This document shows, in pieces, positions 8,631-59,912 of a DNA stretch of 64,000 nucleotides. Source of the DNA: Myxococcota bacterium (GTDB lineage: Bacteria > Myxococcota_A > UBA9160 > SMWR01); assembly GCA_030749415.1 (NCBI GenBank), contig JASMKC010000054.1:16232-80231 (forward strand), in the 5' to 3' direction. Within the stretch, counting starts at the first letter, position 1. Each line of letters opens with the position of its first letter. Position numbers and translations under genes: made by a program. The notes under the pieces are model-generated. The model was not told the DNA's origin. It made no database searches and worked only from the letters and a program-made list of their open reading frames with translations.

Positions 8631-8707
8631 CGGGAGTCATGCTAACAGCGTGTCCGTGCCATGCGCGAGTCCCAACTGCGGTCTCACGGCGCGAGGCACC
8701 CTTGGAA

Positions 8708-9355: not shown

Positions 9356-9388
9356 TGTGATCTCCCTACGGAAAACCGGAAACGCTGC

Positions 9389-9733: not shown

Positions 9734-9800
9734 GGTTCTCTCCGTTCCGCCGTCCGATTCAGATCCGTGCCGGAGTCGGCGTCATGATCCATCATATAAA

Positions 9801-10139: not shown

Positions 10140-10189
10140 CTTTCCCGGGCAAAGCTGGATCTGGTCGAGAACGAAGATCGGTTCCGCGA

Positions 10190-11143: not shown

Positions 11144-11278
11144 GGGAAAAGCCTCCGGAACTGGGAATGCGCAAGAGTCTGCCAGGGTTTTCAGCGTCGA
11201 GCGACTCGAAGTTTCCCAGGCTTCGAGGGTGCGATCGCGCGTTCGACGCGGAGGCAGCACGCGAATCGCGGATCTGGC

Positions 11279-12214
11279 TCAGAGTTCGCCGCGCACCAGC
11301 TTCCAGAATGCCGGTGCAGCCTCGTCTTCGGCTGCGGAGTGCGACTCGGGCAGATTGCCGCCAACATCCGTAAAGCCGTACTCACGCCCGAGATCCGTCG
11401 TCTTGAATGCCTTTCCGGACTTCTCGGCGACGGCTCGGTCCGTAGCGAGCGCGACAACCGAGCGACCCGATAGCCGGGGGGTCTCGGCAACCCCCACGTC
11501 GAGTCCGAACACCGACAGCCGCCCGTCATCGCCGACCTCGCCCTGCGAGACCAGGGTCTCGGTTGCGACGAGGCCGGGCCAGATCGAAATCGCCGAGACT
11601 CCGAACTTGTGGATGTCGTGGTGAATCGCGGCCGTGAGCTTGTCGATTCCGGCCTTGCAGACACCGTAGGGAACCGCGATGACGTAGTAGTCCGGCTGCG
11701 CACCCTCGGAAGAGACGTTGACGATCAGGCCTGAGCCCTGCTTCAACATCAGCGGCGCGCCCAGCGCGCTCGCAACGTAGTGGGAGCGCAGACCCACGCG
11801 CAGGGTACTGTCGAAGCTCTCGAACGGGATGTCCCAGAACTTCAGCCCGAGCATCGACGCCTGGTCGTTCCAGCAAACGTTGTTGACCAGAATATCGAGC
11901 TTGCCTTCGTCTCTTTCGATTCGGTCGAAGACCTCGCGCACCTGCTCGTCATCGGCATGGTCACACGCGACGGCGACACCGCGCCCACCGAGCGCGTCGA
12001 TCTCGGTCGCCGTGGCATCGATCGTGCCGGCCTGCTTCGCATCCTTTGCCCAGGCGGGCAAATCCGCCGTATCGGGACGCGTGCGCCCCGTCACGTAGAC
12101 CGTGGCGCCCGCGGCCCCGAGCTCCACCGCGATGCCCTTCCCGATACCCCTGCTCGCACCGGTGACGAGCGCAACCTTGCTCCGGAGGGGAGCGTCCGTA
12201 CGAGTCATGCACAA
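11279..12214 (-). CDS. Short-chain dehydrogenase/reductase (SDR)
   Basis: ORF of 311 aa with the Rossmann motif VALVTGASRGIGKGIA and a YGVCK catalytic Y-x3-K. Confidence 0.85.
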   Translation of the reverse strand: MCMTRTDAPLRSKVALVTGASRGIGKGIAVELGAAGATVYVTGRTRPDTADLPAWAKDAKQAGTIDATATEIDALGGRGVAVACDHADDEQVREVFDRIERDEGKLDILVNNVCWNDQASMLGLKFWDIPFESFDSTLRVGLRSHYVASALGAPLMLKQGSGLIVNVSSEGAQPDYYVIAVPYGVCKAGIDKLTAAIHHDIHKFGVSAISIWPGLVATETLVSQGEVGDDGRLSVFGLDVGVAETPRLSGRSVVALATDRAVAEKSGKAFKTTDLGREYGFTDVGGNLPESHSAAEDEAAPAFWKLVRGEL

Positions 12215-12386
12215 ATCCTCCGGGGACCCAGCCTAGCGCTCCCCGCTGCGACCCGGCGAACAGACGCATCGAGCGGGCGGTGCGTGCCAGCCCACTCGGC
12301 CCAACCGGCAAACCGGGTGCTCGCGGGGGCACCCCTCCGGCGTACACCCAGCGCCGCAGGGCGGGAGTGAGTATGTTGAGTCCCGG

Positions 12387-14021
12387 ATGCAGAGCGTGGC
12401 AGGGAAGGGAGAGTCGCTGTCCGGGGCAGGCCCTTCTCTCGCCATCGTCGCGGGGGTCTGCACGGCGCTGTTGGCGGCCATCGCGGTGGTCTACGCCCAG
12501 ACGCTCGGGTTCTCCTTCGTATACCTCGACGACCCACGCTACGTGCTGGGGAATCCGGTCGTCCCAGACGGACTCACGCTGCGCGGTGTCGCCTGGGCCT
12601 TCACCGATTCGTTCGACGGAAACTGGTTCCCGATCACCTGGACGTCGCACATGCTCGACGTCGAGATCTTCGGCGTCGATCCGGCAGGCCACCACGCGAC
12701 GAACGTCGCACTCCACGCGGCCAACACCCTGCTGCTCCTGGCGGTATTGCGCCGGCTCTCGGGAGACTTCTGGCCCAGTGCCTTCGTGGCCATGATCTTC
12801 GCGCTCCACCCAATCCACGTCGAATCGGTGGCGTGGATCGCCGAACGCAAGAACCTGCTGAGCACCTTCTTCGGGCTGCTCGCGATCGGCGCCTACGAAC
12901 GCTTTGCGCGGCGGAGAGAAGGCCGCTGGCTGTGGGCCTCGACGGTGCTCCTCGCGTTCTCACTGATGTCGAAGCCGATGTTCGTGACGCTGCCCTTCGT
13001 CGTGCTGCTGCTCGATTACTGGCCACTGCGGCGCTGGCCGGGTGAACGGGTGAGCCGCCTGCTGGCGGAAAAGCTGCCCCTCTTCGCGCTATCGCTGGTG
13101 TCCTGCCTGGTGACCCTGAGCGCGCAGAGCGGAGCGGGGGCGATGCTCGCGGGCCAGCGGCTCGGCCTGCTGCATCGGGTGCTGAACGCCGCGCTGGGCT
13201 ACGCGGAGTACCTGCAACGGACGCTGTGGCCTCGAGATCTGGTCGCGCTGTATCCCCATCCCTACCTGCCTTCGGCGGGCGGCGTGCCTCCCACGGCGAC
13301 GGAGCTCCTGGCGGCCCTCGTCGCACTGGCGGCTGTCAGCGCCGGCGTCTGGGTACTGCGGCGGCACCGGTACCCGGTGGTCGGATGGCTCTGGTTCCTG
13401 GGCACGCTGGTGCCCGTCATCGGAATCGTACAGGTGGGCCAACAGGGCTTTGCCGACCGCTATGGCTATGTGCCTCAGGTGGGCCTTTGCATCATGGCGG
13501 CTTGGGGTGGGAGCGATCTGCTGCGCCGGGTAAGACCGCAGGCGGTCCGGACCTGGCTCGCGGCGGGCGCCTTCGCACTCGGCGTGCCCCTGGCATTCGC
13601 CGCCCACGCCCAGGCCGCTCACTGGCGCGAGCCCGCGAGCCCCTTCGACCGCGCCCTGGCCGTGTATTCCGGCAATCATTTCATGCGCCTTGGCCTCGCC
13701 GGCGCGTTGCGCCGGGCCGGCCGGCCCGACGAGGCCGCCGGCCACTACACGATCCTCCTCGCGACGAACCCCGGTTCCAGTCGCGCCGAGAACGGTCTCG
13801 GCATGATCTTCCAGGACCGGGGAGACAACGCAGAGGCCGTGACTCACTTCGAGCGCGCGCTCGAGATCGATCCCGACAACGGTCTGGTACTCGCAAACCT
13901 CGGCCGGTCACTCCGCGCGCTCGGACGCAACGCCGAGGCTCTAGAGGCGTTCCGCCGCGCGCTCGAATTCCGGCCCAACTCGAAACGCCTGCGGCGCGAC
14001 CTGGCTTCGCTCGAGCCCTAG
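12387..14021 (+). CDS. GT-C-type (PMT/TMTC-like) polytopic membrane protein with C-terminal TPR repeats
   Basis: ORF of 544 aa with about 10 hydrophobic helices. The early motif YLDDPRYVLGNPVV fits the family. The C-terminus holds TPR repeats (ENGLGMIFQDRGDNAEAVTHFERALEIDPDNGLVLANLGRSLRALGRNAEALEAFRRALEFRPN). Confidence 0.8.
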   Translation: MQSVAGKGESLSGAGPSLAIVAGVCTALLAAIAVVYAQTLGFSFVYLDDPRYVLGNPVVPDGLTLRGVAWAFTDSFDGNWFPITWTSHMLDVEIFGVDPAGHHATNVALHAANTLLLLAVLRRLSGDFWPSAFVAMIFALHPIHVESVAWIAERKNLLSTFFGLLAIGAYERFARRREGRWLWASTVLLAFSLMSKPMFVTLPFVVLLLDYWPLRRWPGERVSRLLAEKLPLFALSLVSCLVTLSAQSGAGAMLAGQRLGLLHRVLNAALGYAEYLQRTLWPRDLVALYPHPYLPSAGGVPPTATELLAALVALAAVSAGVWVLRRHRYPVVGWLWFLGTLVPVIGIVQVGQQGFADRYGYVPQVGLCIMAAWGGSDLLRRVRPQAVRTWLAAGAFALGVPLAFAAHAQAAHWREPASPFDRALAVYSGNHFMRLGLAGALRRAGRPDEAAGHYTILLATNPGSSRAENGLGMIFQDRGDNAEAVTHFERALEIDPDNGLVLANLGRSLRALGRNAEALEAFRRALEFRPNSKRLRRDLASLEP

Positions 14022-14136
14022 CCCATGCCCGGTTGTCCGCACCGAGATGAATCGCCTCTGGCCCGGAGGTTTCGCAGCGCCGCAATAGCAGGTACAAGAC
14101 GGGGTAGCCCGGGCCAGACCCTCCGCTCCGGGCCAA

Positions 14137-15186
14137 ATGGGTGATCCCATGACGGCCTTCGAACGCACATTCCCGACGACCCGCCGAAGGGTGCTGCAGC
14201 TGCTCGCGCTCCTGGGTCTCGGAGGCTCCGAAGCCGCGCGCACCGCCGCCGCACTCGCCGCACCTTCCAACCAGGCTGACCCGGTCTGGCCCGAGATGAC
14301 CTACCGCATCCTGGGCCGGACGGGCTTTGACGGCAGCCGGCTCGTCTTCGGCTGCGGCGCCGCGCTCATGCTCTGGGGAAAGGACGATCTCCTCGATGAG
14401 GCCTTCGACCACGGAGTGAACGTTTTCGACGTCGGAACGAGCCACTACTACCGCAACGCCGAGGCAAACCTGGCAGCCTTCGCCAAGAAACACCGCGACC
14501 GGATATTCCTGATCTCCAAGGGACTCGTCGGCATCGATGTCGAACCGACCGACGTGCTGAACAGCGCACAGTGCAAGACGGCTGCCCGGAACTGGGCCGG
14601 CGCACTGGACGCGAGCCTTACGGACCTCGAAACCGACCACGTCGATGCCTACTACGTCATGGCGGTAAACAACACCTCCCTCACGAGGAGTGAGGAGATG
14701 CGCGAGGCATTCCTGACCGCGAAGAAGGCGGGGAAGGTCGACCACTGGGGTGTGAGCACGCACCAGAACGCCCAGGCAGTTCTAGACGCCGCCGCAGACA
14801 CGGGGGAGTATTCGCTCGCCCAGATCGCGATCACGCCGGCGGGCTGGTACGACTGGAGCAGCAAGGGAGTCCTGGCCGGCTCGAAGTCCATGGCGGCTCT
14901 TCAGCCTGTGCTCGCCAAGGCGCGCGAAGCGGGCATCGGTTTGATCGGAATGAAGGCGGCACGTCACTTGACCGGTCGTTGGCTCGGTTTCGGTCCCGAC
15001 CGACCCACCGCCTTCGACGACCACTACGACACCGAGTTCCTTGCGACCCCCCTGTCACCTTTCCAGCGCAGCTACGCCTACGTGCTCGCGCACGGGCTCG
15101 ACGCGGTCAATGCCGACAGCCAATCCCCGGAGCACCTGCACGAGAATTTCGTCGCGGCGGCGACCGCCCAGAGCTATTTCGCGTAG
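14137..15186 (+). CDS. Aldo/keto reductase-family protein with a twin-arginine signal
   Basis: ORF of 349 aa. The N-terminus has a Tat motif, FPTTRRRVLQLLALLGLGG...ALAAPS. The AKR pattern is present: YRILGRTGFDGSRLVFGCG, FDVGTSHYY, LISKG, TDHVDAYYV, GKVDHWGVS. Confidence 0.85.
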   Translation: MGDPMTAFERTFPTTRRRVLQLLALLGLGGSEAARTAAALAAPSNQADPVWPEMTYRILGRTGFDGSRLVFGCGAALMLWGKDDLLDEAFDHGVNVFDVGTSHYYRNAEANLAAFAKKHRDRIFLISKGLVGIDVEPTDVLNSAQCKTAARNWAGALDASLTDLETDHVDAYYVMAVNNTSLTRSEEMREAFLTAKKAGKVDHWGVSTHQNAQAVLDAAADTGEYSLAQIAITPAGWYDWSSKGVLAGSKSMAALQPVLAKAREAGIGLIGMKAARHLTGRWLGFGPDRPTAFDDHYDTEFLATPLSPFQRSYAYVLAHGLDAVNADSQSPEHLHENFVAAATAQSYFA

Positions 15187-47924: not shown

Positions 47925-48743
47925 ATGGTCTTCACCTGGCTTCAAAACAGGCGCCGCCGCCAGCGGCTCAGCGAACCCTTTCCGCCGGCGTGGAACGGCA
48001 TCATCGAACGCAACATCGCTCACGACGCGGATCTCGACGCGGACGAGCGCGCGCGCCTGCGCGAGTTCATCCAGATCTTCATCGGCGAGAAGAGCTGGGA
48101 GGGCTGCGGCGGCCTCGAAATGACCGACGAAATCCGGGTCACCATCGCGGCACAGGCCGGGCTGCTCGTTCTCGGGATCCCGCACGAATACTACAGCAAC
48201 GTGAGGTCGATCCTCGTCTACCCGACGACGGTGGTCACGCCCAAGCGAGCGCCCGGCGTGTTCGAGATGCCGACCGGACCCGTCGCCTCGGGGGTTCCGA
48301 TCCTGGGTGAGGCGCAGCTTCGCGGCCCGGTGATCCTGGTCTGGGACGCCGTGAAACGCAACGCGCGTCATCCCGAGCAGGGTCATGACGTCGTCTACCA
48401 CGAGTTCGCCCACAAGCTCGACATGCTGGACGGATCCGTGGACGGGACGCCGCCGCTCGGGAGCCGCGAGGAAATCCGCCGCTGGGCCGAGGTCTGCGAA
48501 CGCGAGTTCAACGACCTGCGCTCGCGCGTCACGCGGGGAAAGGCAACCTTTCTCGACCAGTACGGCGCGACCAACGAAGCGGAGTTCTTCGCCGTCGCCA
48601 CCGAGTTCTTCTTCGACAAGCCGAGCGCCATGAAGCGCCACGAACCGGAACTCTACGAGCTGCTGCAGAATTTCTATGCTCAGGACACCGCCGCGAGGGC
48701 TTCCCGGCAGCTCGAAGACTCCCACCCGGGCACTTCCAGCTGA
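47925..48743 (+). CDS. mtfA: MtfA-like zinc peptidase (M90 family)
   Basis: ORF of 272 aa. The HExxH motif sits in VVYHEFAHKLD, and NEAEFFAVATEFFFDKP is typical of MtfA/DUF980. Confidence 0.85.
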   Translation: MVFTWLQNRRRRQRLSEPFPPAWNGIIERNIAHDADLDADERARLREFIQIFIGEKSWEGCGGLEMTDEIRVTIAAQAGLLVLGIPHEYYSNVRSILVYPTTVVTPKRAPGVFEMPTGPVASGVPILGEAQLRGPVILVWDAVKRNARHPEQGHDVVYHEFAHKLDMLDGSVDGTPPLGSREEIRRWAEVCEREFNDLRSRVTRGKATFLDQYGATNEAEFFAVATEFFFDKPSAMKRHEPELYELLQNFYAQDTAARASRQLEDSHPGTSS

Positions 48744-48849: not shown

Positions 48850-49365
48850 GTGAATCTCGAAATTCCGCACCTGCTGATCGGAGCCCTGCTGCTCTTCTTC
48901 GGGCGGCGGTTCTTCTGGCTCTTCGTCGGCCTCGTGGGGTACCTGGTCGGTTTCGATTTCGCGACCGGATCCCTGAACGTCGATCCCCGGTGGCTTGCCG
49001 TGGTGCTGGCCGCGCTAGTCGGCGTGGCAGCGGCGGTGCTGGCAATGTTCTTCCAGCTCGCTGCCGCGGGCATCGCGGGCTTCGGTGTCGGACTCTACGC
49101 GGCGACAGCGCTAACGGGTACAGCGACGCCCTCCTGGATCGCCGTGCTGTGCGGCACCGTGGGCGCAGTCATCGCGGTGGCGGTATTCGGCTGGGCCCTG
49201 GTGCTGCTCTCGGCGCTGGCCGGGGCCGCAGCGCTGATCAACCCCTTCGAACTCGCACCGACGATGCGCGTGGTCGCCTTCGTCGTCCTCGCCGCACTGG
49301 GCATCGCGTTCCAGTCTGCCGGAATGCAGCGCAGTTCCGGCGGGGGCCGCCAGGGCAGAGCCTAG
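48850..49365 (+). CDS. Polytopic membrane protein (DUF4203-like)
   Basis: ORF of 171 aa with a GTG start and 5 to 6 Gly/Ala-rich helices. The family call is from memory only. Confidence 0.6.
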   Translation: MNLEIPHLLIGALLLFFGRRFFWLFVGLVGYLVGFDFATGSLNVDPRWLAVVLAALVGVAAAVLAMFFQLAAAGIAGFGVGLYAATALTGTATPSWIAVLCGTVGAVIAVAVFGWALVLLSALAGAAALINPFELAPTMRVVAFVVLAALGIAFQSAGMQRSSGGGRQGRA

Positions 49366-50735
49366 GCCCGGGGAAAGGCCAGGCTCACGCGGAGCCCGGG
49401 CGCGTTGTCTTCCAGCCGAAGCTCCGCACCGTGGAGCCGGGCCACGGCGGCCACGAAGCTCAGGCCGAGACCGGTACCCGGGCGCTGACGCGACGAATCG
49501 AGCCGCACGAAGCGCTGGAGCACCCGCTCGCGATCTTCGGGTGCAATGCCCGGGCCCCGGTCGGCGATCTCGATCTCGATTCCCCCGGCCGTGCGCCGCG
49601 TCGAAACGGCAATGCCTCCGCCGCCCTCGCCGTACTTGATGGCGTTGTCGATCAGGTTCACCACCGCCTGCGACAACAGGTGCCGGGCAGCGGCGACGCT
49701 GAGCCCGGCCTCGAGCGCGGTTTCGATGCTCAGGCCGGCCTCCTCGGCCACCGGTTGGTAGAGATCGACCGCATCTCCGACCACCGCGTCCAGGTCGAGC
49801 GGCTCCATCTGCTGACGAGCGGCCCCGCTCTGGATCTGCGAAAGGCTGAGCAGGGCATTGAAGGTGTCGAGCACACCGTTGGTCTCGTCCAGCAGCCGGT
49901 GCAGCGCTTCCCGGGCGTGCGCCTCGTTCTCCGGGGCCGAGAGCGCCGCCTCGATGTGGCTCCGCATGCGCGACAGGGGCGTCCGCAGGTCGTGGGCGAC
50001 GTCGTCGGTGACCTCGCGCATGCGGGCAATCAGATGCTGGTTCTCTTCGAGAAGGCGGTTGAAGTGAACGGCCAGGTCGTCGAATTCGTCGCGCGGCTCG
50101 CCCACCGGAACCCTCTCTTCGCTCCCCCCGCCGAGGATGTTCAGCACCGTGCCGTTCATACCCTCCACCCGCTTCAGGAGGTTTCGACCCATGGCGAGAC
50201 CGCCGGCGATGGCCAACAACAGGGCGAACGCGAAGGCACTGAGCGCCGCGGTGCCGAGCAGATCCTGGATCTTTCGTTGCTCGGTGACGTCGTGACCCAC
50301 GAGCAGGTGGCGTCCGTCGCCGAATACGATGGAGGCAGCGCGAACGTGCCGCACGCTGCGCAGCGTGCCGGCACCCTCTTCCCAGGAGAGATCGCCGGCG
50401 GGCAGGGGACCCACCACGCCCTCGGGCCAGCCGGGAAGGTTCCCGGCGATCATCTCGTAGCGCGCTTCGGCAAATCCGTAGACGATGCGGTTGCGGCTCG
50501 ACTCCCCGCTGCGCCGCGCGATTTCGGCGGCCAGCGCCTCCTGCCCCCGTCCCTCGATGTGGAATTCGAGATCGCTGAGCTCCTGCTCCACGATGTCGTC
50601 GGCTCTCTCTTCGAGGAGCAGGTCGGCCGCTACATAGAGGCCGCCGAGAGAGAGCGCCGCGACAAAGCCCACGAGGCCCACCGTCGCCAGCGTGAGACGA
50701 ACCCGGATGCTGCGGCGCCGTTCAGTCGGGTTCAC
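49362..50735 (-). CDS. Sensor histidine kinase (TM-HAMP-HisKA-HATPase)
   Basis: ORF of 457 aa with a GTG start at 50735. The H-box is VTDDVAHDLRTPLS and the ATPase region reads DRGPGIAPED...GTGLGLSFV. It overlaps the response-regulator stop by 14 nt. Confidence 0.9.
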   Translation of the reverse strand: MNPTERRRSIRVRLTLATVGLVGFVAALSLGGLYVAADLLLEERADDIVEQELSDLEFHIEGRGQEALAAEIARRSGESSRNRIVYGFAEARYEMIAGNLPGWPEGVVGPLPAGDLSWEEGAGTLRSVRHVRAASIVFGDGRHLLVGHDVTEQRKIQDLLGTAALSAFAFALLLAIAGGLAMGRNLLKRVEGMNGTVLNILGGGSEERVPVGEPRDEFDDLAVHFNRLLEENQHLIARMREVTDDVAHDLRTPLSRMRSHIEAALSAPENEAHAREALHRLLDETNGVLDTFNALLSLSQIQSGAARQQMEPLDLDAVVGDAVDLYQPVAEEAGLSIETALEAGLSVAAARHLLSQAVVNLIDNAIKYGEGGGGIAVSTRRTAGGIEIEIADRGPGIAPEDRERVLQRFVRLDSSRQRPGTGLGLSFVAAVARLHGAELRLEDNAPGLRVSLAFPRA

Positions 50736-51405
50736 GGATCTGGTAGCCGGCGCCGCGCACCGTGTGGATCAAGGCATGCTCGTAGCCCTTGTCGACCTTG
50801 TGCCGCAGGCGGCTGATATGCACGTCGATGACATTGGTCTGGGGATCGAAGTGGTAGTCCCACACGGCCTCGAGAATCATGGTGCGCGTCACGACGCGCC
50901 CGGCGTGGCGCATCATGAACTCGAGAAGCTGAAACTCCCGGGGCTTCAAATCGATAGGACTCCCGCCCCGCTGCACGCTCCGCTTGAGGAGGTCCATCTC
51001 GAGATCCGCAACGCACAGCCGCGTCTCGGCGGGCGCTCCCGCGCGGCCGCGCCGCTGCACCAGCAGTTCGAGGCGCGCGAGCAGCTCTGTGAACGCGTAG
51101 GGCTTCACCAGGTAGTCGTCGCCGCCCGAACGCAGGCCGTGCACGCGCTCGTCCACCTCGCCCATTGCACTCACGATCAGTACCGGCGTCTCGCGGCCGG
51201 CCTTGCGCAGCGTCTCGATCACGGAGAGTCCATCGAGAGACGGAAGCATGCGGTCCACGATGAGCGCGTCGTAGGACTCGTGCATGGCCCGGTTGAGCCC
51301 TTCGAGCCCATCCTCCACCGCGTCCGCCACGTGTCCGCTCTCCGAGAGCGCCTTGCACAGGTACCCGGAAGCCGTGGTGTCGTCTTCGATGAGGAGCACC
51401 TTCAT
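50722..51405 (-). CDS. OmpR-family response regulator
   Basis: ORF 50722..51732 trimmed to ATG 51405, which has GGAG upstream. It reads MKVLLIEDD...DALIVDRMLPSLDG...DDYLVKPYAF, with the winged helix LKPREFQLLEFMMRHAG...TVRGAGYQI. Confidence 0.9.
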   Translation of the reverse strand: MKVLLIEDDTTASGYLCKALSESGHVADAVEDGLEGLNRAMHESYDALIVDRMLPSLDGLSVIETLRKAGRETPVLIVSAMGEVDERVHGLRSGGDDYLVKPYAFTELLARLELLVQRRGRAGAPAETRLCVADLEMDLLKRSVQRGGSPIDLKPREFQLLEFMMRHAGRVVTRTMILEAVWDYHFDPQTNVIDVHISRLRHKVDKGYEHALIHTVRGAGYQIREPD

Positions 51406-51446
51406 TGCCACTCCGTCCCGTGGCTGCAGTCTACCTTGCGCGAGCC

Positions 51447-53294
51447 TCAGCGCGTGGGGTAGAGGGCCGGGAGCGGCGCTTCCGGCTCCCGCCGCTTCCT
51501 GCGGGTCGCCCGGAGCGCGCCGCGGTAGATCCGCCACAACTCGGCGCCCTGCCACTCGCCCTCCCGCTCGGCATAGACCGCGCGATGCACTTCCTCGATG
51601 ACCCGCTCGAGTTCCGGCGCATCGAGGCGGGCGGCCCAGGCCGCGGGACCCAACCCGGCGGCTTCGGGCCAGCGCGCACGAGCGACCTGGCGCAACGCCG
51701 TCACGGCCGCGGCGCGATCCGAATTCCGGCACGCGCGGCGCAGGGAGGCCTCGGCCCGGCGAAGGTTTTCAAGCGGGCCTCGGCCCCCCTCCTTGACCAA
51801 CTGGAGGGGCGCCCAGTGTCGGCGAGCCCGGGGAAGGCCCGCCATGGTCAAAAGGATGAGGATGCCGAGGCCCGCGCCAACCCACGCACCGAAACGCCAC
51901 AGGTGGGGAAAATTTGCGGCATTTCGAGCTTGAGTCGGCTCAGAGACAACATTCGGTGCGGTGGGGGGAACCGCAGGGAGGGGTGCGGCGAGTTCTTCGT
52001 CGCCGGGCAAAACTTCGACGCTGCGCGCCGGCAGGGTCGCCGTGCGGGCCGTGTCCGTCTGGGTGTCCCACCAGGCGAGTTCGACGGCGGGAAGCGTGAC
52101 CGCGCCCGGCCGCGTCGGAATGAGGGCCGTCCGCTGAAGCTTCACCGAAACGACCTCGTCTCCCACCATCGCGGTTTCGTCCACGGCCGGTTCGCCGTAC
52201 TGCTTCATGCCTTCGATCTCGGGCAGGTCGAGTTCGGGTAGCTGAGCGCCCGAGAGTCCCGTGGCCCGGATCGCGACGCTGCGCTCGATGGGCTCTCCCA
52301 CCCGGAAGACCGGCACGTCGCGCTCCCAATCTTCGATGAGCTCTACGTTTCGCGCCGGCAGCCACCACTGGCCGCTGGCGCCGGCGGGTCGGGCCTTCAC
52401 GTCGAGAGTCGCGGCTGCGGAAACCATTCTCACGGGCTTTCCGCCGCCCCCCAGGAAGCTGTCGAAGAGGCTCGAGGGCGCGCCGAAGCCCGCCGAGAAA
52501 TCGTCGAAGAACGAGGACCCTAAGAACCCATCGAAGGGATCTCTCCGGCGGCTCTGCCGCGCCTCGCGCACCCGCCCATCGAAGACGACCGGGGGAACGT
52601 AGATTTCTCCGCTGCGCTGCGGGAAGATGGCGAACTGGCGCTCGACGACCTGGTAGGCATGGCCGCCGATCTCCCGGCGATACGTGCGGTCCTCTCCGAT
52701 CCGCTCGACCACGGCGTCTTCCACCGTCGGCGAGTGGATCTCTCCGTCGATCAGGCTCCCGTCGGAATGAAGCCTCACGGTGAGCAGTACGCGGCTCTGC
52801 ACGTAGGGCTCGGAGTCATCGACTTCTGCGTCGAGAAAGACCGCACCCCGCGCCTGCGTCGCGGCGTCAAGCGCAGAAGCACCTTTCGCGACGTCAAGCG
52901 CAGAAGGGCTTTCCGCAACCTGAAGCGCGGCAGGGCTTTCCGCAACCTGCAGCGCGATCGGTGCGCTGACGGCGTCGCCGGCACGGATCTCGGGAATCTC
53001 CAATTCACCCGTACCGCGCGGCGCGAGGGTCACGGTCCAGTCGAGGCTCGAGTCGACACGATTGTTGACGATGCTGGTCCGCATGCTGCGGGTCACCTTC
53101 AGGATGTCGAAATCCCGGGTGAGAACGTCGAGTTCCGGACGCTCGGTGCCGCCGCGCAGGCGCAACAGGAGATTCACGGTCTCTCCCGGGGCCAGCTGGC
53201 GCCGTTCCAGGCGTGCGTCGAGCTGTGCCGCATCCGCCGCACTGGCAACCAGCAGTGCGGCCGCCACGGCCAATCCGATAGTCGTTCGCCTCAT
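51447..53294 (-). CDS. batD: BatD-family (oxygen-tolerance) protein
   Basis: ORF 51447..53393 trimmed to ATG 53294, which overlaps the upstream stop as ATGA. It has a signal peptide (MRRTTIGLAVAAALLVASAADA). The N-terminal BatD pattern is GETVNLLLRL...DFDILKV...WTVTLAPRGTGELEIPEI, and there is a C-terminal TM segment. Confidence 0.8.
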   Translation of the reverse strand: MRRTTIGLAVAAALLVASAADAAQLDARLERRQLAPGETVNLLLRLRGGTERPELDVLTRDFDILKVTRSMRTSIVNNRVDSSLDWTVTLAPRGTGELEIPEIRAGDAVSAPIALQVAESPAALQVAESPSALDVAKGASALDAATQARGAVFLDAEVDDSEPYVQSRVLLTVRLHSDGSLIDGEIHSPTVEDAVVERIGEDRTYRREIGGHAYQVVERQFAIFPQRSGEIYVPPVVFDGRVREARQSRRRDPFDGFLGSSFFDDFSAGFGAPSSLFDSFLGGGGKPVRMVSAAATLDVKARPAGASGQWWLPARNVELIEDWERDVPVFRVGEPIERSVAIRATGLSGAQLPELDLPEIEGMKQYGEPAVDETAMVGDEVVSVKLQRTALIPTRPGAVTLPAVELAWWDTQTDTARTATLPARSVEVLPGDEELAAPLPAVPPTAPNVVSEPTQARNAANFPHLWRFGAWVGAGLGILILLTMAGLPRARRHWAPLQLVKEGGRGPLENLRRAEASLRRACRNSDRAAAVTALRQVARARWPEAAGLGPAAWAARLDAPELERVIEEVHRAVYAEREGEWQGAELWRIYRGALRATRRKRREPEAPLPALYPTR

Positions 53295-55312
53295 CTCCAG
53301 CTCCCATTCGCGCCGTAGCGCCGTTCGGCGTAGCGGCGGCGCAGCTTCTCGCGCAGCAGCCCGCCCGGATCGTCCGGAACCCGGTTGAGCCACTGCTCCG
53401 CTTCCTGGTCCTCTTCGCTCAGCTCCCGCCCGGATCCCCCGGACGCCATCGGGCGTCCGGTCTGATCGGGGGCGTCTTGGTCGCCGCCCGCACCGGCCGT
53501 CGATCGACCGGCTTCGGGCCGCGGCTGCGCGGGTTCGGTCTGCTGCCCGCCGGCACCGCCCCGGGGCTCGGCGCTCGCCTGCTGCGATTCGCTCGGAGCC
53601 GAAGACTCGGCGGTCTGCGGCTCGGGCGCTTCGGATTCGCCCTGCCCCGCCGCCGGATTCTCGGCAGACTGGCTCTCACCGGAGTTCTCCGCCTGGGCCT
53701 CGGAGCCTTCCGCTTCGGATTTGCTCTGGGCCCCTTCGGGTTCGCTCTGGGCCCCCTCGGGTTCACTCTGGGCCCCCTCGGGTTCACTCTGGGCCGAGTC
53801 CTGCCCGGCACCCGCCTCGTCGGTGTCGGATTGCGCCGACTCGTTCTCGCTTCCCGACGACGGGTCTTCCTGCGACGACTCGTCCTGTTCCGATTCCTCC
53901 GACTGGCCGCCGCCCTGCGAGGCCTGCTCTTGCTGCGGCTGCTGTTGTTGCTGCTGCTCCTGTTGCTGCTGCTCCTGTTGCTGCTGCTCCTGTTGCTGCT
54001 GCTCCTGTTGCTGTTGCTCGAGCAGCTTCTCGACCAGTTCGCGGTTGAAGCGGGCATCCTCGTGGTCGGGCTCGATTTCCAGCACCCGGCCATAGGCCGC
54101 GATCGATTCCTCGAAGCGGTTGGCGCGCGCCAGGGCATTGCCCAGGTTGTATTGGGAGCGCCCGTCGTCCTGGCCCTGGAGCATCTGCGCCGCGGCCTCG
54201 TACTCACCGCTCCGGTACAGCGCAGCACTGCGCCACTCCGGGTCTTCGAAGAGTTCGGCTGCGCCGGCGGCGTCGCCCTGCTCTAACGCGGCAGCTCCCT
54301 GCTGGTCGGGACGGGCAAACCATTCCGCCACGCCGGCAGTCGCCGTCTGAGGGACGGCGGGCAAGAAGAACATCACACCCAGCGCCGCGGCCCAACCGCG
54401 CCGGAATGCCAGGGGCACCAGCAGCAACGGGAGCAGCACGAGCCAAGCCCCCACATCATTCCAGGCGTCGGCTTTCAAACCGGACTGCTGGGCAGTCGCC
54501 AGCAACGACGCCGAGCCGCTCCCGCCGCCGAGCAGGTAGTCGAGATCGGAATCGTCGGCGCGAACCGAGGCGAAGCGCCCGCCGCCGGCTTCGGCCAACG
54601 CCTCGAGCGCCTCCGCGTCACCACCGATGCCGAGCACCGAAACCGGGTAACCCGCGGCTTCCGCTCGTTGCGCGGCCTCGAGCGCAGCCTCGGGCACATC
54701 GCCGAGCCCGTCGCCGAGAAGCAGCACGCGACCCTGGGCGGCGCCGGCCTGTGTCAGCAACTCGCGCGCCTGGTCGATGGCGCGGCCCACGTGGGCGCCG
54801 CGTCCCGGCATGAGCCTCGACTCGAGCAGCGGGACCTGTGAGGCAATGACGCTCGGATCGTCGGTCAACGGCGTCACCGGGTAGGGCTCTTCCGCGAAGA
54901 TCACGAGCCCGGCGGCGCCTTCCACTCGCTCGAGGACGTCGAGCGCCTCGTAGCGCGCACGTGCCAGGCGCGTGGGCGCGACGTCGCGGGCATTCATCGA
55001 CGGGGCCAGGCTCAGCGCGAGCACGGTCTGCACCGGCTCCTTGAAGGCCGGCTGAGGCAGGCGCTCCCAGGTGGGTCCCGCCAGGGCGAGACACGCCGCC
55101 GTCCAGGCCACGGCGAAGACCGCGGGCACCGTCCGCGAACTCCGGCCGCCGCCATCCACCACGAGGTGCCGGAGGAGTTCCGGATCGCACACGCGGCGCC
55201 ACGCGCCGGCGCTGCGCCGCTGCCGCAGCGCGGCCCAAAGGGCGGGTACCAGCAAGGCAAGGGCGAAGAGCCAAGCCGGTCTCAGGAAGTGGAAGTTCTC
55301 GAAGCCCGTCAC
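53291..55312 (-). CDS. VWA-TPR fusion protein (BatB/BatC-like) with a long acidic/Gln-rich tail
   Basis: ORF 53291..55387 trimmed to GTG 55312, which overlaps the batA stop as GTGA. It has two N-terminal TM helices, a VWA-like domain and TPR repeats (YNLGNALARANRFEESIAAYGRVLEIEPDHEDARFN). A low-complexity tail follows, and the end is conserved (WLNRVPDDPGGLLREKL). Confidence 0.8.
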   Translation of the reverse strand: MTGFENFHFLRPAWLFALALLVPALWAALRQRRSAGAWRRVCDPELLRHLVVDGGGRSSRTVPAVFAVAWTAACLALAGPTWERLPQPAFKEPVQTVLALSLAPSMNARDVAPTRLARARYEALDVLERVEGAAGLVIFAEEPYPVTPLTDDPSVIASQVPLLESRLMPGRGAHVGRAIDQARELLTQAGAAQGRVLLLGDGLGDVPEAALEAAQRAEAAGYPVSVLGIGGDAEALEALAEAGGGRFASVRADDSDLDYLLGGGSGSASLLATAQQSGLKADAWNDVGAWLVLLPLLLVPLAFRRGWAAALGVMFFLPAVPQTATAGVAEWFARPDQQGAAALEQGDAAGAAELFEDPEWRSAALYRSGEYEAAAQMLQGQDDGRSQYNLGNALARANRFEESIAAYGRVLEIEPDHEDARFNRELVEKLLEQQQQEQQQQEQQQQEQQQQEQQQQQQPQQEQASQGGGQSEESEQDESSQEDPSSGSENESAQSDTDEAGAGQDSAQSEPEGAQSEPEGAQSEPEGAQSKSEAEGSEAQAENSGESQSAENPAAGQGESEAPEPQTAESSAPSESQQASAEPRGGAGGQQTEPAQPRPEAGRSTAGAGGDQDAPDQTGRPMASGGSGRELSEEDQEAEQWLNRVPDDPGGLLREKLRRRYAERRYGANGSWR
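53724..53795. repeat. 21-bp tandem repeat x3.4 (encodes GAQSEPE)
   Basis: ctctgggcccc(t/c)tcgggttc(g/a) units start at 53724, 53745 and 53766, with a partial copy following. The last two full copies are identical. Confidence 0.9.
53951..54010. repeat. Perfect 15-bp tandem repeat x4 (encodes EQQQQ)
   Basis: ctgctgctcctgttg occurs at 53951, 53966, 53981 and 53996, embedded in a longer CTG/TTG-rich run. Confidence 0.95.
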
Positions 55313-56352
55313 CGTGCCATCTCCTCTTCGGGGGCAGCGAAACGCTCCGGCCGCAGCGAGAGGTCGGTCTCGCGCGCGAATCGCCACAGCAGCAGCAGCG
55401 CAGCGAGAGCCAGCGCCGCCGCCAGCGGGTAGTGGAAGAGCGCCCGAGTCGGCCTCACCTGGGCCGCCTCACCTTCGGTTGGCTCTAGCGCATCGATGCG
55501 GCGGTAAACCTCGACGAGGCCCTGCGTGTCGCGGGCGCGGAAGTAGGCGCCACCGGTCAGGTCCGCCACCTTCTGAAGCGCCGCCTCGTCGAGCTCGGCG
55601 TCGGTATTCATCACGCGCGGCCCCATCAGGGTCTGGACGACCTGGCGTCCCGAGCCGATCCCGATCGTGTAGATGCGCACGCCTTCACGGGCCGCCAGTT
55701 CGGCGGCCTGGACGGGCTCGAGCACGCCGGTGTTGCTGGCGCCGTCGCTCAGCAGGACGAGTACGCGCTCCTCGGCGGGTCGATTTCGCAAGTGCTTCAC
55801 GGCCAAGCCGATGGCATCGCCGATGGCGGTCTCCTCGCCGGGCAGGCCGATTTCCGCCTCGTCGAGCATCTCGATCACGGTCTGCCGGTCGAAGGTGAGC
55901 GGCGCCTGGAGGTAGGCGCGGGTTCCGAATAGCACGAGGCCAATCCGGTCGCCTTCGCGATGGTTGACGAACTCGCGGGCCACCGCGTTCACCACCCGAA
56001 GGCGGTCGACGCTGTGGCCGGAGACGTCGAAGTCCTCGGTCGCCATGCTTCCCGAGAGATCGAGGGCGATCATGAGGTCTCGCCCGTGGGTGGAGACCGA
56101 CCGCGGCTCACCCATCCAGCGCGGCTGCGCTGCCGCAACAACCAGCAGCGACCAGGCGGCCACCTTCAGCACCAGAGCCGCGCGGCCACTGCCGCTGCCG
56201 CCGGCGCCGCCGGCGGGCAATGCCCGAAGCGAAGCGAAGAAGGGAACGCGCAGCGCTCCGCCGCTGCCCTCAGGAGCCGGCGGGAACAACCACCACACCA
56301 GCAGGGGGAGGGGAAGCAGGAGCAACAACCACGGCAGGGCAAAGTCGATCAC
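55309..56352 (-). CDS. batA: VWA-domain protein BatA
   Basis: ORF of 347 aa. GTG 56352 overlaps the upstream stop as GTGA. It has an N-terminal TM segment (ALPWLLLLLPLPLLVWW) and an intact MIDAS motif (IALDLSGSMATEDF) within a VWA fold. Confidence 0.85.
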   Translation of the reverse strand: MIDFALPWLLLLLPLPLLVWWLFPPAPEGSGGALRVPFFASLRALPAGGAGGSGSGRAALVLKVAAWSLLVVAAAQPRWMGEPRSVSTHGRDLMIALDLSGSMATEDFDVSGHSVDRLRVVNAVAREFVNHREGDRIGLVLFGTRAYLQAPLTFDRQTVIEMLDEAEIGLPGEETAIGDAIGLAVKHLRNRPAEERVLVLLSDGASNTGVLEPVQAAELAAREGVRIYTIGIGSGRQVVQTLMGPRVMNTDAELDEAALQKVADLTGGAYFRARDTQGLVEVYRRIDALEPTEGEAAQVRPTRALFHYPLAAALALAALLLLWRFARETDLSLRPERFAAPEEEMAR

Positions 56353-56828
56353 GAGATCCTCCGGATCCAGTCGCGGGCGGCCACGATCCAGGCGTCGCCG
56401 TCCGGTTCCAAAATGGAGTTCGGGCCCGCGTATACGGCCAGTGCGATGGAAACACCCACGTCGGCGGGAAAACCGGTGCCCTTCCCGCTTTCCGCCAGGA
56501 AGCCGAGCCAGTCATCCCCGTAGAGCCCCGCAACTTCCGCCCGCGCGAAGCGCGCCAGAGAGACGCGACGCAGCACGCAGGAGAGCGAAACCGCAAGTTC
56601 CGAGAGATCTCCCGTCGAGCCGAAGTCGTGCTGCACGGCTTCGATCTCGCGCAGCGCGGCGCGCTTGATGCTCCGCCGGCGCCAACCCGACACCAGGTAG
56701 AGGGACGCGGCAAGCACGAGAAAGAGGAGCAGCATCGCCCACCAGCCCGGTGCCAGCGGCCAGAGTGAGACGGCTTCGGGCAGGTGGATGTCGCGCAGGG
56801 CCGCGAGTGCGTCGGTGGTGGGTGCCAT
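56349..56828 (-). CDS. DUF4381-domain membrane protein
   Basis: ORF of 159 aa. LRDIHLPEAVSLWPLAPGWWAMLLLFLVLAASLYL is the typical DUF4381 N-terminus found in Bat/MoxR operons. Confidence 0.75.
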   Translation of the reverse strand: MAPTTDALAALRDIHLPEAVSLWPLAPGWWAMLLLFLVLAASLYLVSGWRRRSIKRAALREIEAVQHDFGSTGDLSELAVSLSCVLRRVSLARFARAEVAGLYGDDWLGFLAESGKGTGFPADVGVSIALAVYAGPNSILEPDGDAWIVAARDWIRRIS

Positions 56829-57799
56829 CAGCTCGGCCTCCGGTTTCGGTTTGCCAGCCGTTCGGGATGCAGAGCAGCCCCCAGCGCAGCCGCCGGATCG
56901 TCGTCCGTGCGAAGCGAGAGCAGCTGGATGCGGTGGCTCCGACAGAAATCCTTCAGTGCCTCACGCCGGGTGTCGAAGGGCGCGGAGTAGGCGCGGCGCC
57001 AGCCGCCGCCCCCCGATGAAATGGCGTGCACACCGTTGCCGTCGCTCACGCGGTAGCGACCGGCCGGGGGCGCCTCCGCCTCGAGGGCGTCGTAGACCAG
57101 GATGCAGGTGGTGTCGCACCGCCGCCCGATATCGGACAGGGGCAGCCGCCAGCGGTCGTCGAAGTCGTAGAAATCACTCAGCACGAATACCCGGCTCCCC
57201 GAACGCACCCGTTCGCGCAGGCGGGCGAGGCAGTCGAGCGTGCCCGGAGCCCCGTCTTCTTCGGAAGCCGCGGTGGCGCGCGAGATCGCACCGAGCAAAT
57301 CCATCAGCGGACCTTCACCGGCCGCGGGCGGTAGCTCGCTCACCCGTTCCGGGGAACGCACGACGCCGCCGACCGGGTCACCACCCAATTGCGCCGACCA
57401 GGCCAACAGCGCGGCGGCTCGCGCCGCGGCCACGGACTTGAAAGCACGGCGCGTTCCGAAGCGCATGCTGGGCCCGGCATCCAGCATCAGCCACAGGGGC
57501 CGGTCGTGCTCTTCGTGAAAGACCTTGCTGTGAACCCGACCGGTCCGGGCCGTCACCCGCCAGTCGATCTGGCGAACGTCGTCGCCGGGCTGATAGGCGC
57601 GGACTTCGTCGAAATCCAGGCCCCGGCCCCGGAATGGCGAGGGGTACGGACCCGCCAGCGGCGTCTCGACCCGGAGCGCCGGGCCGAGATCCAAGCCGTG
57701 TGCGGCGTGCCGCATCTGCACCAGCTCCGCGGAGCCTGCGACTACACCTGCAGCGTCCGCTTCAGCTCCGGGTGTCGCGTTGCCCTCGATCCAGCTCAT
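56828..57799 (-). CDS. DUF58-domain protein
   Basis: ORF 56828..58057 trimmed to ATG 57799, which has GAGGGA upstream. FDEVRAYQPGDDVRQIDWRVTARTGRVHSKVFHEE is the DUF58 signature. Confidence 0.85.
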   Translation of the reverse strand: MSWIEGNATPGAEADAAGVVAGSAELVQMRHAAHGLDLGPALRVETPLAGPYPSPFRGRGLDFDEVRAYQPGDDVRQIDWRVTARTGRVHSKVFHEEHDRPLWLMLDAGPSMRFGTRRAFKSVAAARAAALLAWSAQLGGDPVGGVVRSPERVSELPPAAGEGPLMDLLGAISRATAASEEDGAPGTLDCLARLRERVRSGSRVFVLSDFYDFDDRWRLPLSDIGRRCDTTCILVYDALEAEAPPAGRYRVSDGNGVHAISSGGGGWRRAYSAPFDTRREALKDFCRSHRIQLLSLRTDDDPAAALGAALHPERLANRNRRPS

Positions 57800-57840
57800 G
57801 ACTCGTCCCTCGCTTCTTCCGAGACCGTGACGACACCCGC

Positions 57841-58845
57841 TCAGGGGAGCGGAACCGTCTCGATCAGTGAACGAATGAAACCGTCCGGAGTGATGCCTTC
57901 CGCGCGCGCCTCGTAGGTGAGAAGCACCCGGTGGCGGAGCACTTCGAACACCACGGCGTGGACGTCTTCCGGCGTCACGTAGGAGCGTCCGTCCAGCCAG
58001 GCGCGCGCCCGCGAGCAGCGGTCGAGAGCGATCGTCGCACGCGGACTCGCACCCCACTCCACCCAGCGGGCGAGCTCGGCGTCGAAGGGTGCGGGGTCGC
58101 GTGTCGCAACCACGAGCTGCACCAGGTATTCCTCGAGTGCGGGAGCCAGGTGAACGTCCATGACTCGACTTCGCGCGCGGAAGACGTCGGTCTGCGTCAC
58201 CGCGCGGAAGTGCGGAGCGGGAATCCCGCCGGCCTCGTCACGCACCAGGCGCAGCACATCGCGCTCGATGCCGGGCGCCGGGTAGCCGACCCGGACATAC
58301 ATCAGGAAGCGGTCGAGCTGTGCCTCCGGCAGGGGATAGGTGCCTTCCTGCTCGATCGGATTCTGGGTGGCCATCACCAGGAAGAGATCGGGAAGCGGGT
58401 AGGACTCGTTTCCCACGGTCACCTGGCGCTCGGCCATCGCTTCGAGCAGAGCCGACTGCACCTTGGCCGGCGCACGGTTGATCTCGTCCGCCAACAGCAG
58501 GTTGTGGAAGATCGGACCCGGCTGGAAGCTGAAACTCCCGTCCTCCGGCTTGAACACGTCGGTGCCGGTGAGATCCGCGGGCAGCAGATCGGGGGTGAAC
58601 TGCACCCGGTGGTCATCCCCCTCGATCGCCTCGGCAAGTGCTTTGATGGCGGTGGTCTTCGCGAGCCCGGGCGCCCCCTCCACGAGCAGGTGGCCATCGG
58701 CCAGCAGGCTGATGAGAAGCTTCTCGATCAGCTCCGGCTGTCCGAGGACACGCGCCTCGAGGTGATTGCGGAGGTGACGGAACGTCGCGTGAACGTCGGT
58801 CTCGGTGAGTCTGAGGTCGACCTGCGGAGCAGCTGCAGAAGTCAT
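57841..58845 (-). CDS. MoxR-family AAA+ ATPase
   Basis: ORF 57841..58980 trimmed to ATG 58845, which has GGGAGAGGA upstream. It carries Walker A (GAPGLAKT), Walker B (LLADEINRA) and VMATQNPIEQEGTYPLPEAQLDRF. Confidence 0.9.
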   Translation of the reverse strand: MTSAAAPQVDLRLTETDVHATFRHLRNHLEARVLGQPELIEKLLISLLADGHLLVEGAPGLAKTTAIKALAEAIEGDDHRVQFTPDLLPADLTGTDVFKPEDGSFSFQPGPIFHNLLLADEINRAPAKVQSALLEAMAERQVTVGNESYPLPDLFLVMATQNPIEQEGTYPLPEAQLDRFLMYVRVGYPAPGIERDVLRLVRDEAGGIPAPHFRAVTQTDVFRARSRVMDVHLAPALEEYLVQLVVATRDPAPFDAELARWVEWGASPRATIALDRCSRARAWLDGRSYVTPEDVHAVVFEVLRHRVLLTYEARAEGITPDGFIRSLIETVPLP

Positions 58846-59249
58846 GGGTTCCTCTCCCTGAACGGTTTCGATCCTTTCGATCGCGGGGTATCTGACCCCG
58901 CCGTGCCGGCGTCGTCTGAGTGCTGCGCCGATCACGATCCAAGGTTTAGGTCCAGGGGGTTGCCGCAGGACTTCCGTCACATGAACTCTGGTTCATGTGC
59001 GTTTCCAGAGCCTCGGCAAGTCGGACAGCGGGGGCCTATCGAAGGCGAGAGCCCAATGCTCGGGGGTTGCCGCGCCGGTCCGGCGGCCGGGGGTAGCGTG
59101 GAAGCGCCCCCCGTGTCCGCCGAGAAAACGGACCTCACACGCTGACCACTCTCGGTGGAATGGGCGAAACGCGCCATGGTAACTTCGGGCAGGCGGTCGA
59201 TGCCGCTCGGCGGCAATTCGAGGCGCAACCCAGCGCGAGGACACACGAC

Positions 59250-59912
59250 ATGGACTTTCCCGACCTCGATCCGGAACTCGTGAAGAGCCTGCTCGAATCA
59301 CTGGCGAGCTTGGACCCGCGGGCATCGGTTCCCCTCGCGCTGACCTACATGCAGGTCGGAGACGAAGCGGCGCTCAAAGGCTTCGACGCCATGGCACTTG
59401 CCAACCCGGTCGCCGGCGAAATGCTGGAGAGTCGCTACCTCAGTCCCACACCGGACGTCGCCTACCTGGCGACGCTTCCCGACGGCAGCCTCGGCAAGGA
59501 ACTCGAGCGCTTCCTGACGGAAAACGAGCTCGATGCCAACCTGCTGCGGGAGTCCACCTTCATCGGCGCACACAAGGCGCGGGGCGAAGACGTGGGGTAC
59601 CTGATCGAGCGGGGATTCCAGCTCCACGACATATTCCACGTCCTCACCGGCTTCGACACGACGCCACTCGGCGAAGTTCGAGTCGTCAGCTTCACCGTGG
59701 CCCAGACCCCCGCTCCCTACCCGGCGATGATCATCGCAAGTCGTCCGCTTCAGATGGTCCTGTACAAGCCAGAATTGCTACCGGCCGTCATGGACGCCAT
59801 CACGGAAGGCTGGGCACTCGGGCGAAAGGCGAAGCCGCTCATCAACGTGCACTGGGAGGAGTACTGGGAACACCCTCTCGCCGAACTGCGCCGGCAATAC
59901 GCGCTCGACTGA
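59250..59912 (+). CDS. Coq4-family protein
   Basis: ORF 59160..59912. The internal ATG 59250 has GAGGA upstream, and 59160 remains possible. The Coq4 zinc-ligand motif HDxxH-x11-E is present as HDIFHVLTGFDTTPLGE (59625..59675). Confidence 0.75.
   Translation: MDFPDLDPELVKSLLESLASLDPRASVPLALTYMQVGDEAALKGFDAMALANPVAGEMLESRYLSPTPDVAYLATLPDGSLGKELERFLTENELDANLLRESTFIGAHKARGEDVGYLIERGFQLHDIFHVLTGFDTTPLGEVRVVSFTVAQTPAPYPAMIIASRPLQMVLYKPELLPAVMDAITEGWALGRKAKPLINVHWEEYWEHPLAELRRQYALD

Follow-up and report, generated by a model that had tools for sequence, protein, structure and literature searches.

The stretch of DNA analysed here, referred to as the window, comprises 64,000 nucleotides (nt) of contig JASMKC010000054.1 (positions 16,232 to 80,231 of the forward strand) from the Myxococcota bacterium assembly GCA_030749415.1. 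Eight genes, all on the minus strand, span positions 49362-58845 in the order moxR, DUF58, DUF4381, batA, batB/batC, batD, response regulator (RR) and histidine kinase (HK), that is, a Bat operon with a two-component system (TCS) appended after batD. The first-pass annotation, made from the letters alone, had described this co-directional block, and both its coordinates and its strand are confirmed. The locus is a lineage-specific variant of the Bat operon with a dedicated TCS, not a new system, and a palindrome upstream of moxR is a strong candidate for the operator of the appended RR. The genes are listed below, with protein lengths in amino acids (aa).

57841..58845, minus strand: moxR, a 334-aa AAA+ ATPase, MoxR-proper (Pfam AAA_3, 5.6e-63, 211 bits; AAA_lid_2, 71 bits)
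56828..57799, minus strand: DUF58 gene, 323 aa (Pfam DUF58, 1.3e-39, 136 bits)
56349..56828, minus strand: DUF4381 gene, a 159-aa single-pass membrane protein (Pfam DUF4381, 4.6e-34, 118 bits)
55309..56352, minus strand: batA, a 347-aa membrane-anchored VWA protein (Pfam VWA, VWA_2 and the BatA N-terminal domain)
53291..55312, minus strand: batB/batC fusion, 673 aa (Pfam VWA_2 and TPR_1/2), with a long acidic Gln-rich low-complexity tail
51447..53294, minus strand: batD, 615 aa (Pfam BatD, 1.7e-17, 64 bits against a cutoff of 24; DUF7939, 9e-13)
51406..51446, minus strand: batD-RR spacer, 41 nt, with a GGAG ribosome-binding site at 51414-51411
50722..51405, minus strand: OmpR/PhoB-family RR, 227 aa (Pfam Response_reg and Trans_reg_C)
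49362..50735, minus strand: sensor HK, 457 aa (Pfam HAMP, HisKA and HATPase_c)

Direct reading of the sequence agrees with every junction given in the first-pass annotation. A 41-nt gap separates moxR from DUF58; the DUF4381 start overlaps the DUF58 stop in TGATG; DUF4381 and batA overlap in GTGA, as do batA and the VWA-TPR gene (batB/batC), and the latter overlaps batD in ATGA; and the last 14 nt of the RR gene are shared with the start of the HK gene. The remark that the batD-RR gap holds no obvious terminator is borne out by the terminator scan, which gave no match there, and by the RNA fold of the junction, whose z of 0.60 against shuffled sequence indicates no extra stability. Over 48.5-59.5 kb, the sigma-70 promoter scan gave zero matches, and the terminator scan gave matches at or under chance level, none of them at gene ends. 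No Rfam family matched anywhere in the window. The TCS genes are probably co-transcribed with batD, in which case the system would autoregulate through read-through.

The gene content is that of a Bat-type operon, with a MoxR-proper gene first and DUF58 after it, followed by BatA, BatB and BatC, and by BatD. The batA product scores 24.0 bits against a cutoff of 25.9 for the Pfam BatA N-terminal domain, and matches NCBIfam VWA_BatA_Lepto at 3.5e-52, under the cutoff of that model. The batB/batC product gives partial matches, also under cutoffs, to BatB_Lepto and BatC_Lepto. The NCBIfam BatA, BatB and BatC models used are Leptospira-specific, and all of them match the window proteins below cutoff. 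The batD product has a signal peptide, a large periplasmic region, DUF7939 and a transmembrane helix at its C-terminus, and a protein search with it returned 425 homologues. The window proteins are identical to those of contig JAMYGJ010155621.1 of metagenome assembly GCA_024712105.1.

In comparison with the BatI (aerotolerance) operon of Bacteroides fragilis and its homologues in Leptospira, Borrelia, Francisella and Riemerella, the window shows the same core genes in the same order, namely MoxR, DUF58, a small membrane protein, the VWA protein BatA, the VWA protein BatB, the TPR protein BatC, and BatD, with tight overlaps. It differs in that BatB and BatC are fused and carry the long acidic Gln-rich tail, in that no BatE gene follows batD, after which the RR and HK genes are appended, and in that moxR is preceded by the palindromic candidate operator. 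Even after 25 years, Bat operons are poorly understood at the molecular level. Leptospira bat mutants have reportedly been studied for oxidative stress (PMC3557215), and the aerotolerance or oxidative-stress phenotype of Bat operons is disputed among species.

Two sets of in-frame tandem repeats lie in the acidic tail of the VWA-TPR protein, between its TPR region and a conserved C-terminal motif (53724-53795 and 53924-54019): a 15-nt unit repeated 6.4 times, coding for (EQQQQ)n, and a 21-nt unit repeated 3.4 times, coding for (GAQSEPE)n. The length of this tail may vary among strains. A further coding tandem repeat, of a 27-nt unit in 3.2 copies, is found in batD (52869-52955).

The Pfam bpMoxR model, which represents the MoxR domain of MoxR-vWA-beta-propeller ternary systems, also matches the window's MoxR, at 58 bits. 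This raised the question of a MoxR-vWA conflict or anti-phage defence system with the TCS as its trigger, a proposal that is effectively refuted. AAA_3 describes this MoxR far better, at 211 bits; the locus lacks a beta-propeller or effector gene, and PADLOC models match none of the Bat proteins; and the operon is conserved, widespread, syntenic and chromosomal, with 556 confirmed relatives found by scanning the GTDB species genomes.

To evaluate the linkage of the TCS to the operon, all eight window proteins were mapped onto 80 Bat loci from GTDB species genomes, a set probed with a 9-sequence BatD alignment (A2). An RR-HK pair follows batD on the same strand in twelve of the 80 (L001-L005, L007, L009, L016, L018, L019, L066 and L076), with identities to the window proteins of 68-84% for the RR, 42-59% for the HK and 35-49% for BatD. 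It follows batD in none of the remaining 68, which are mostly from gamma- and betaproteobacteria. Six more BatD homologues (P0004, P0006, P0019, P0024, P0026 and P0034) served as a held-out test, and in all six an RR-HK pair follows batD. Over the 18 other loci with this arrangement, identity to the window's RR is 68-84% and to its BatD 35-54%, and MoxR in the TCS-bearing relatives is 67-76% identical. Given that the eight-gene order recurs in relatives this diverged, the arrangement is not a chance one. The distance equivalent to the batD-RR gap is 3-82 nt in nine of the twelve related GTDB loci. The TCS-bearing loci carry record labels of Myxococcota, Deltaproteobacteria, Planctomycetota, Spirochaetaceae or 'TMED', and come mostly from marine or deep-sea metagenome-assembled genomes (MAGs); as a group they are taken to be one marine lineage of Myxococcota-like organisms.

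Some TCS-less loci, among them L008, L011 and L036, match the window's BatD as closely as the TCS-bearing ones do. In neighbour-joining trees, the TCS-bearing loci are monophyletic, both with MoxR and BatA (8/8 among 49 tips) and with BatD (11/11 among 71 tips). One exclusive TCS clade of this kind points to a single acquisition by which the TCS joined the Bat operon. The reverse test, a metagenome scan with an HK alignment, yielded 80 distant TCS relatives (HK 31-49% and RR 49-77% identical) and none of the Bat-linked clade; hence these were used as a negative control and as family context. None of the 80 has Bat, FKBP or M90 genes beside it.

These values indicate that, as far as sequence comparison goes, the link between the TCS and the Bat operon is real and conserved, yet lineage-specific and no general property of Bat operons. 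The association proposed in the first-pass annotation thus holds in the 18 other loci and fails outside one clade, where none of 68 Bat loci has it. That annotation had named, as what would speak against it, a terminator or promoter separating batD from the RR gene together with a lack of TCS-Bat association in other genomes; the junction shows no terminator and the association recurs in the related loci described above, so that the interpretation is supported.

One of the held-out loci, L162, has an insertion of about 200 nt between batD and the RR gene (8428-8640) with a MITE-like (miniature inverted-repeat transposable element) look; a perfect 21-nt inverted repeat, GAGCCTGACCCAAGACTGCTG ... 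CAGCAGTCTTGGGTCAGGCTC, marks its two ends. The RR gene of this locus, called at no more than 175 aa, seems to have been truncated or frameshifted.

Two features upstream of moxR bear on how the operon may be controlled.

58978..58999, no strand assigned: predicted RR operator, a 22-bp palindrome CACATGAAC-CAGA-GTTCATGTG
58942..58948, minus strand: TAAACCT, a -10-like element that begins exactly 32 nt past the box on the moxR side

The core of the palindrome is the box ATGAAC-N4-GTTCAT at 58981-58996, 135 nt upstream of the moxR ATG. The palindrome had already been pointed out in the first-pass annotation; it is real, it is the sole match to ATGAAC-N4-GTTCAT at up to two mismatches in the 64-kb window, and every TCS-bearing locus for which upstream DNA is available (13 of 13) has kept a box ahead of moxR, while the intergenic sequence around it is unalignable. 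The moxR box is exact in L001, L002, L004 and L066, reads ATGACA...GTTCAT in L016 and L018, and is degenerate in L005. Among the held-out loci, all five with upstream DNA have it, either exact (L164, L165 and L166) or with one mismatch (L162 and L167).

The same box also occurs at a second gene. In the relatives, a gene with FKBP_N and FKBP_C domains, encoding an FkpA/Mip-like peptidyl-prolyl isomerase (PPIase) with a signal peptide, adjoins the TCS, and the box precedes this FKBP gene in nine loci (L002, L009, L016, L018, L019, L066, L076, L162 and L163). In eight of these (L002, L016, L018, L019, L066, L076, L162 and L163) the FKBP box has the same +32 spacing as described below; in L009 the box lies 573 nt from the FKBP match, with the spacing to the TA hexamer unchanged.

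Scans for the box gave five exact and six one-mismatch sites in the TCS-bearing GTDB loci (0.21 Mb), all 11 of them upstream of moxR or FKBP. The Bat-only loci (1.02 Mb) gave no exact and three one-mismatch boxes, and the TCS-only loci (0.75 Mb) gave neither exact nor one-mismatch ones. Compared across the three data sets, these counts indicate that the box tracks the Bat-linked TCS, rather than Bat operons or the TCS family generally. That TCS-bearing relatives have it before moxR and TCS-less ones do not favours the view that the RR controls the Bat operon, in which case it would be the box-binding protein.

It could be argued instead that the TCS is a conserved neighbour and no regulator of Bat, the palindrome being the site of an unlinked factor or part of an alternative-sigma promoter. 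The GAAC of the half-site does resemble the -35 element of extracytoplasmic function (ECF) type promoters, the RR scores under the cutoff of the CusR/CopR subfamily, and in three loci (L009, L019 and L076) the TCS has a promoter region of its own that lacks the box. However, the two half-sites are conserved symmetrically, as fits a dimeric factor and unlike a sigma -35 element, and the RR is the sole regulator conserved in the TCS-bearing neighbourhoods. Given also the strict co-occurrence of box and TCS, with 13 of 13 TCS-bearing moxR promoters on one side and no exact box in the Bat-only and TCS-only sets on the other, we regard this explanation as rather unlikely.

A Coq4-family gene (59160-59912, plus strand) is divergent from moxR in the window, and the 314-nt intergenic region common to both holds the box. 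Other loci have different genes at this position, and on that ground the box is assigned to moxR; in this genome it may also control Coq4 divergently.

The spacing between the box and the promoter is fixed. Of the first 15 promoters with a box (8 on the moxR side and 7 on the FKBP side), 13 have the dinucleotide TA at +32 from it, and so do those of L162, L164, L165 and L166. In the window, TAAACCT would act as the -10 element. If transcription starts about 7 nt past this hexamer, the box, some 40 bp upstream of it, would be centred near -52. At the moxR promoter the box thus lies upstream of the -35 position, in fixed phasing, with no recognisable -35 hexamer. This is a typical layout of activator-dependent promoters of the OmpR/PhoB family, in which the regulator site lies upstream and a -35 hexamer is missing. 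The RR is more plausibly an activator than a repressor on this ground.

A third half-site complicates the picture. GTTCAT recurs 16 nt after the box in L001, L016, L018 and L066, and GTTCAG is found at this place in L004, L164 and L165. In several moxR promoters it falls within the core promoter, so that binding there could occlude RNA polymerase, and the RR might be a repressor or dual regulator whose signalling derepresses the operon. The window has GGCAAC instead, though, and all of the FKBP promoters are without the third half-site. The position of the box, its fixed phasing and the missing -35 hexamer speak for activation, as does the Bat operon of Riemerella anatipestifer, which is activated by PhoP (PMC9603813). 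Repression or dual control is therefore considered unlikely.

The case of R. anatipestifer is a direct precedent for control of a Bat operon by a TCS, and its regulatory logic is that proposed for the window's TCS. There, the moxR promoter is bound by the OmpR-family regulator PhoP, which acts as an activator of the Bat operon, according to electrophoretic mobility shift assays, DNA affinity purification sequencing (DAP-seq) and RNA sequencing (PMC9603813; PMC11834572). PhoP acts genome-wide, on about 50 direct targets, and has a site of its own upstream of phoPR; its motif has been likened to that of ArcA (PMC9603813; PMC11834572). The two systems differ in that PhoPR was not described as belonging to the Bat operon, whereas the window's TCS is physically appended to it, and in that the box described here has two recognisable local targets only (moxR and FKBP), against about 50 for PhoP.

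The window's RR and HK have the elements of an OmpR/PhoB-type TCS: a receiver Asp, a winged-helix Trans_reg_C domain, a HisKA H-box and HATPase_c. The predicted phospho-acceptor of the RR is Asp51, within the motif VDRMLP. The H-box of the HK reads VAHDLRTPL, and its His248 is invariant in ten orthologues. Between its two transmembrane helices, the HK has a periplasmic domain of about 120 aa (approximately residues 42-160). A sequence search of this sensor domain against the PDB gave no match, the cytoplasmic domains alone being matched.

The top NCBIfam match of the RR is the CusR/CopR/CzcR subfamily TIGR01387, at 248.0 bits against a cutoff of 279.2. The HK reaches 171.4 bits against a cutoff of 292.55 with TIGR01386, in an alignment that begins at residue 125. 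E. coli CusRS and HprRS, and CopRS, CusRS and CzcRS of Pseudomonas, therefore represent the best-scoring subfamily for the window's TCS. E. coli CusR binds AAAATGACAAnnTTGTCATTTT, a 6-4-6 inverted repeat, as quoted in bioRxiv 10.1101/2023.09.26.559466, and according to the same preprint Pseudomonas CusR, CopR and CzcR bind palindromes too. When the CusR operator as quoted there (ATGACA-AnnT-TGTCAT) is set against the window's ATGAAC-N4-GTTCAT, the 6-4-6 arrangement is the same and the likeness is one of geometry only; the left half-site ATGACA of the quoted CusR box occurs in L016 and L018 only. A very small regulon and autoregulation, as proposed for the window's TCS, are features of the CusRS/CopRS-type systems as well.

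Since the best matches of both proteins are heavy-metal subfamilies, and the box has the geometry of the CusR box as quoted, a true Cu/Ag/Zn-sensing CusRS, CopRS or CzcRS system would place the Bat operon in a metal-stress response. We consider this very unlikely. Both proteins fall short of the curated cutoffs (248 against 279 bits for the RR, 171 against 292 for the HK), and the HK matches only from residue 125 on, its sensor domain being unalignable. In the alignment of ten orthologues (A3), no His, Cys or Met is invariant or nearly so within the sensor domain (approximately residues 40-165). No metal-efflux, multicopper oxidase or metal-chaperone gene lies beside the TCS in the window and 18 related loci; over these 19 loci the neighbours are instead FKBP, Peptidase_M90 and HSP20 genes, with DegP/HtrA in stand-alone relatives. 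Given the sub-cutoff scores, the lack of conserved metal ligands and the lack of metal-resistance genes nearby, which set the window apart from the CusRS/CopRS type, the TCS is not filed as a metal sensor.

The gene neighbours suggest another role. Among the stand-alone TCS relatives with enough upstream DNA (34), twelve have a DegP/HtrA gene (Trypsin_2 and two PDZ domains) directly upstream of the RR gene. Taken as a group, the stand-alone relatives look like a widespread DegP-linked TCS family. The order degP/htrA-RR-HK is recurrent (L091, at 7598-14354, L085, L092, L095, L100, L128, L138 and L153), and is followed by glnE in L091 and by a porin gene in L100.

Envelope and secretion-stress TCSs control periplasmic proteases and foldases, as CpxAR does with degP and ppiA, MprAB with pepD and CssRS with htrA. 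The window's TCS resembles them in that degP/htrA lies beside its stand-alone relatives and in that the box precedes an FkpA-like gene in the Bat-linked version. By sequence it is not a member of the Cpx or Bae families, since it stays below the curated cutoffs (CpxA 99.8 against 486 bits, BaeS 140 against 500, BaeR 108.7 against 380), and no cpxP-like gene is found; the likeness is one of function and context. Taken together, the DegP/HtrA neighbours and the FkpA-like target suggest that the TCS family is concerned with protein quality control in the periplasm, and these same neighbours point to a role of the window's TCS in envelope signalling.

These results are best accounted for by an envelope-stress-type TCS that activates the Bat operon through the box and autoregulates by read-through, a reading we hold to be probable. 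The HK would detect a periplasmic or envelope signal, probably a non-metal one, through its periplasmic domain of about 120 aa, and would phosphorylate the OmpR-family RR at Asp51. An RR dimer bound to ATGAAC-N4-GTTCAT would then switch on the genes from moxR to batD. In the window, RNA polymerase would read on across the 41-nt batD-RR spacer, so that RR and HK are induced as well, in positive autoregulation. In the relatives, the same box would drive the neighbouring FkpA/Mip-like prolyl isomerase gene in parallel.

Several points weigh against this reading. In L009, L019 and L076, a Peptidase_M90 gene on the opposite strand and a hairpin lie between batD and the RR gene, so the TCS must have its own promoter there. 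These separate RR promoter regions have no box at up to two mismatches; hence, read-through autoregulation is not universal, and co-transcription of Bat and TCS genes is, to judge from these gene arrangements, not obligatory across the clade. An internal RR promoter may exist in the window as well. Since no canonical sigma-70 promoter was detected, the -10 assignment draws on positional conservation alone. OmpR-family regulators usually bind direct repeats, and the precedent for an inverted repeat comes from the CusR/CopR subfamily only, under whose cutoff the RR falls. The degP-linked relatives share only 31-49% HK identity with the window, and may be functionally non-equivalent. A wider regulon is not visible in the window, which contains a single box and lacks an FKBP gene. 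Finally, all carrier organisms are uncultured and represented by metagenome-derived genomes.

A more specific version of the envelope-stress reading can be formulated from the box shared with the FkpA-like gene, which would imply that Bat is co-regulated with envelope protein-folding functions. The Bat complex would be the effector of a dedicated envelope protein-folding stress response in which the box co-induces MoxR, the VWA proteins and BatD together with the FkpA-like chaperone, and the HK would sense protein damage in the periplasm or inner membrane, or else respond to how far the Bat complex is assembled. We put this version forward tentatively, as it is doubtful on present evidence. 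If true, it would be the first defined circuit from signal to operator to Bat, and a direct way into Bat function.

Bat/MoxR operons are widespread, and a lineage with its own sensor, regulator and candidate operator offers a handle on their function, one that is testable through the 22-bp candidate site. The small predicted regulon (Bat and the FkpA-like PPIase, possibly with the M90 peptidase) would place Bat in envelope protein quality control rather than in oxygen detoxification, and the stimulus of the kinase would report the condition in which the Bat proteins are needed. The case also illustrates the recruitment of a DegP-associated TCS family to a new target operon. As all carriers are uncultured marine MAGs, tests are limited to heterologous ones. 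In Pseudomonas aeruginosa, PA3070 (moxR) to PA3078 (cprRS) may have a comparable Bat-plus-TCS layout, which forms no part of the argument here.

A further neighbour of the TCS may belong to the same regulon.

47925..48743, plus strand: Peptidase_M90 (MtfA-like) gene (Pfam Peptidase_M90, 4.6e-82)

An M90 gene adjoins the TCS, on the strand opposite to it, in the window and in L009, L016, L018, L019, L066 and L076, and is found in none of the 68 TCS-negative Bat loci. The FKBP gene with its box comes first in L016, L018 and L066, and the M90 gene follows it on the same strand. At the promoter of the window's M90 gene, no box was found at up to two mismatches. Membership of the M90 gene in the box regulon is uncertain.

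In two of the held-out loci, a small heat-shock gene of the HSP20 family follows the HK gene (L164, 14041-14277; L165, 14050-14286). It was considered as a third member of the regulon and rejected: it has no box, and a sigma-54-like promoter element, TGGCAC-N5-TTGC, is found instead.

Downstream of the HK gene in the window, and ahead of the M90 gene, an open reading frame (ORF) on the plus strand (48850-49365) encodes a multi-pass membrane protein of 171 aa with a weak TM7S3_TM198 match. It converges on the HK gene and overlaps the HK stop by 4 nt. A tblastn search placed it in none of the twelve TCS-bearing GTDB loci and only in the window's contig (L081).

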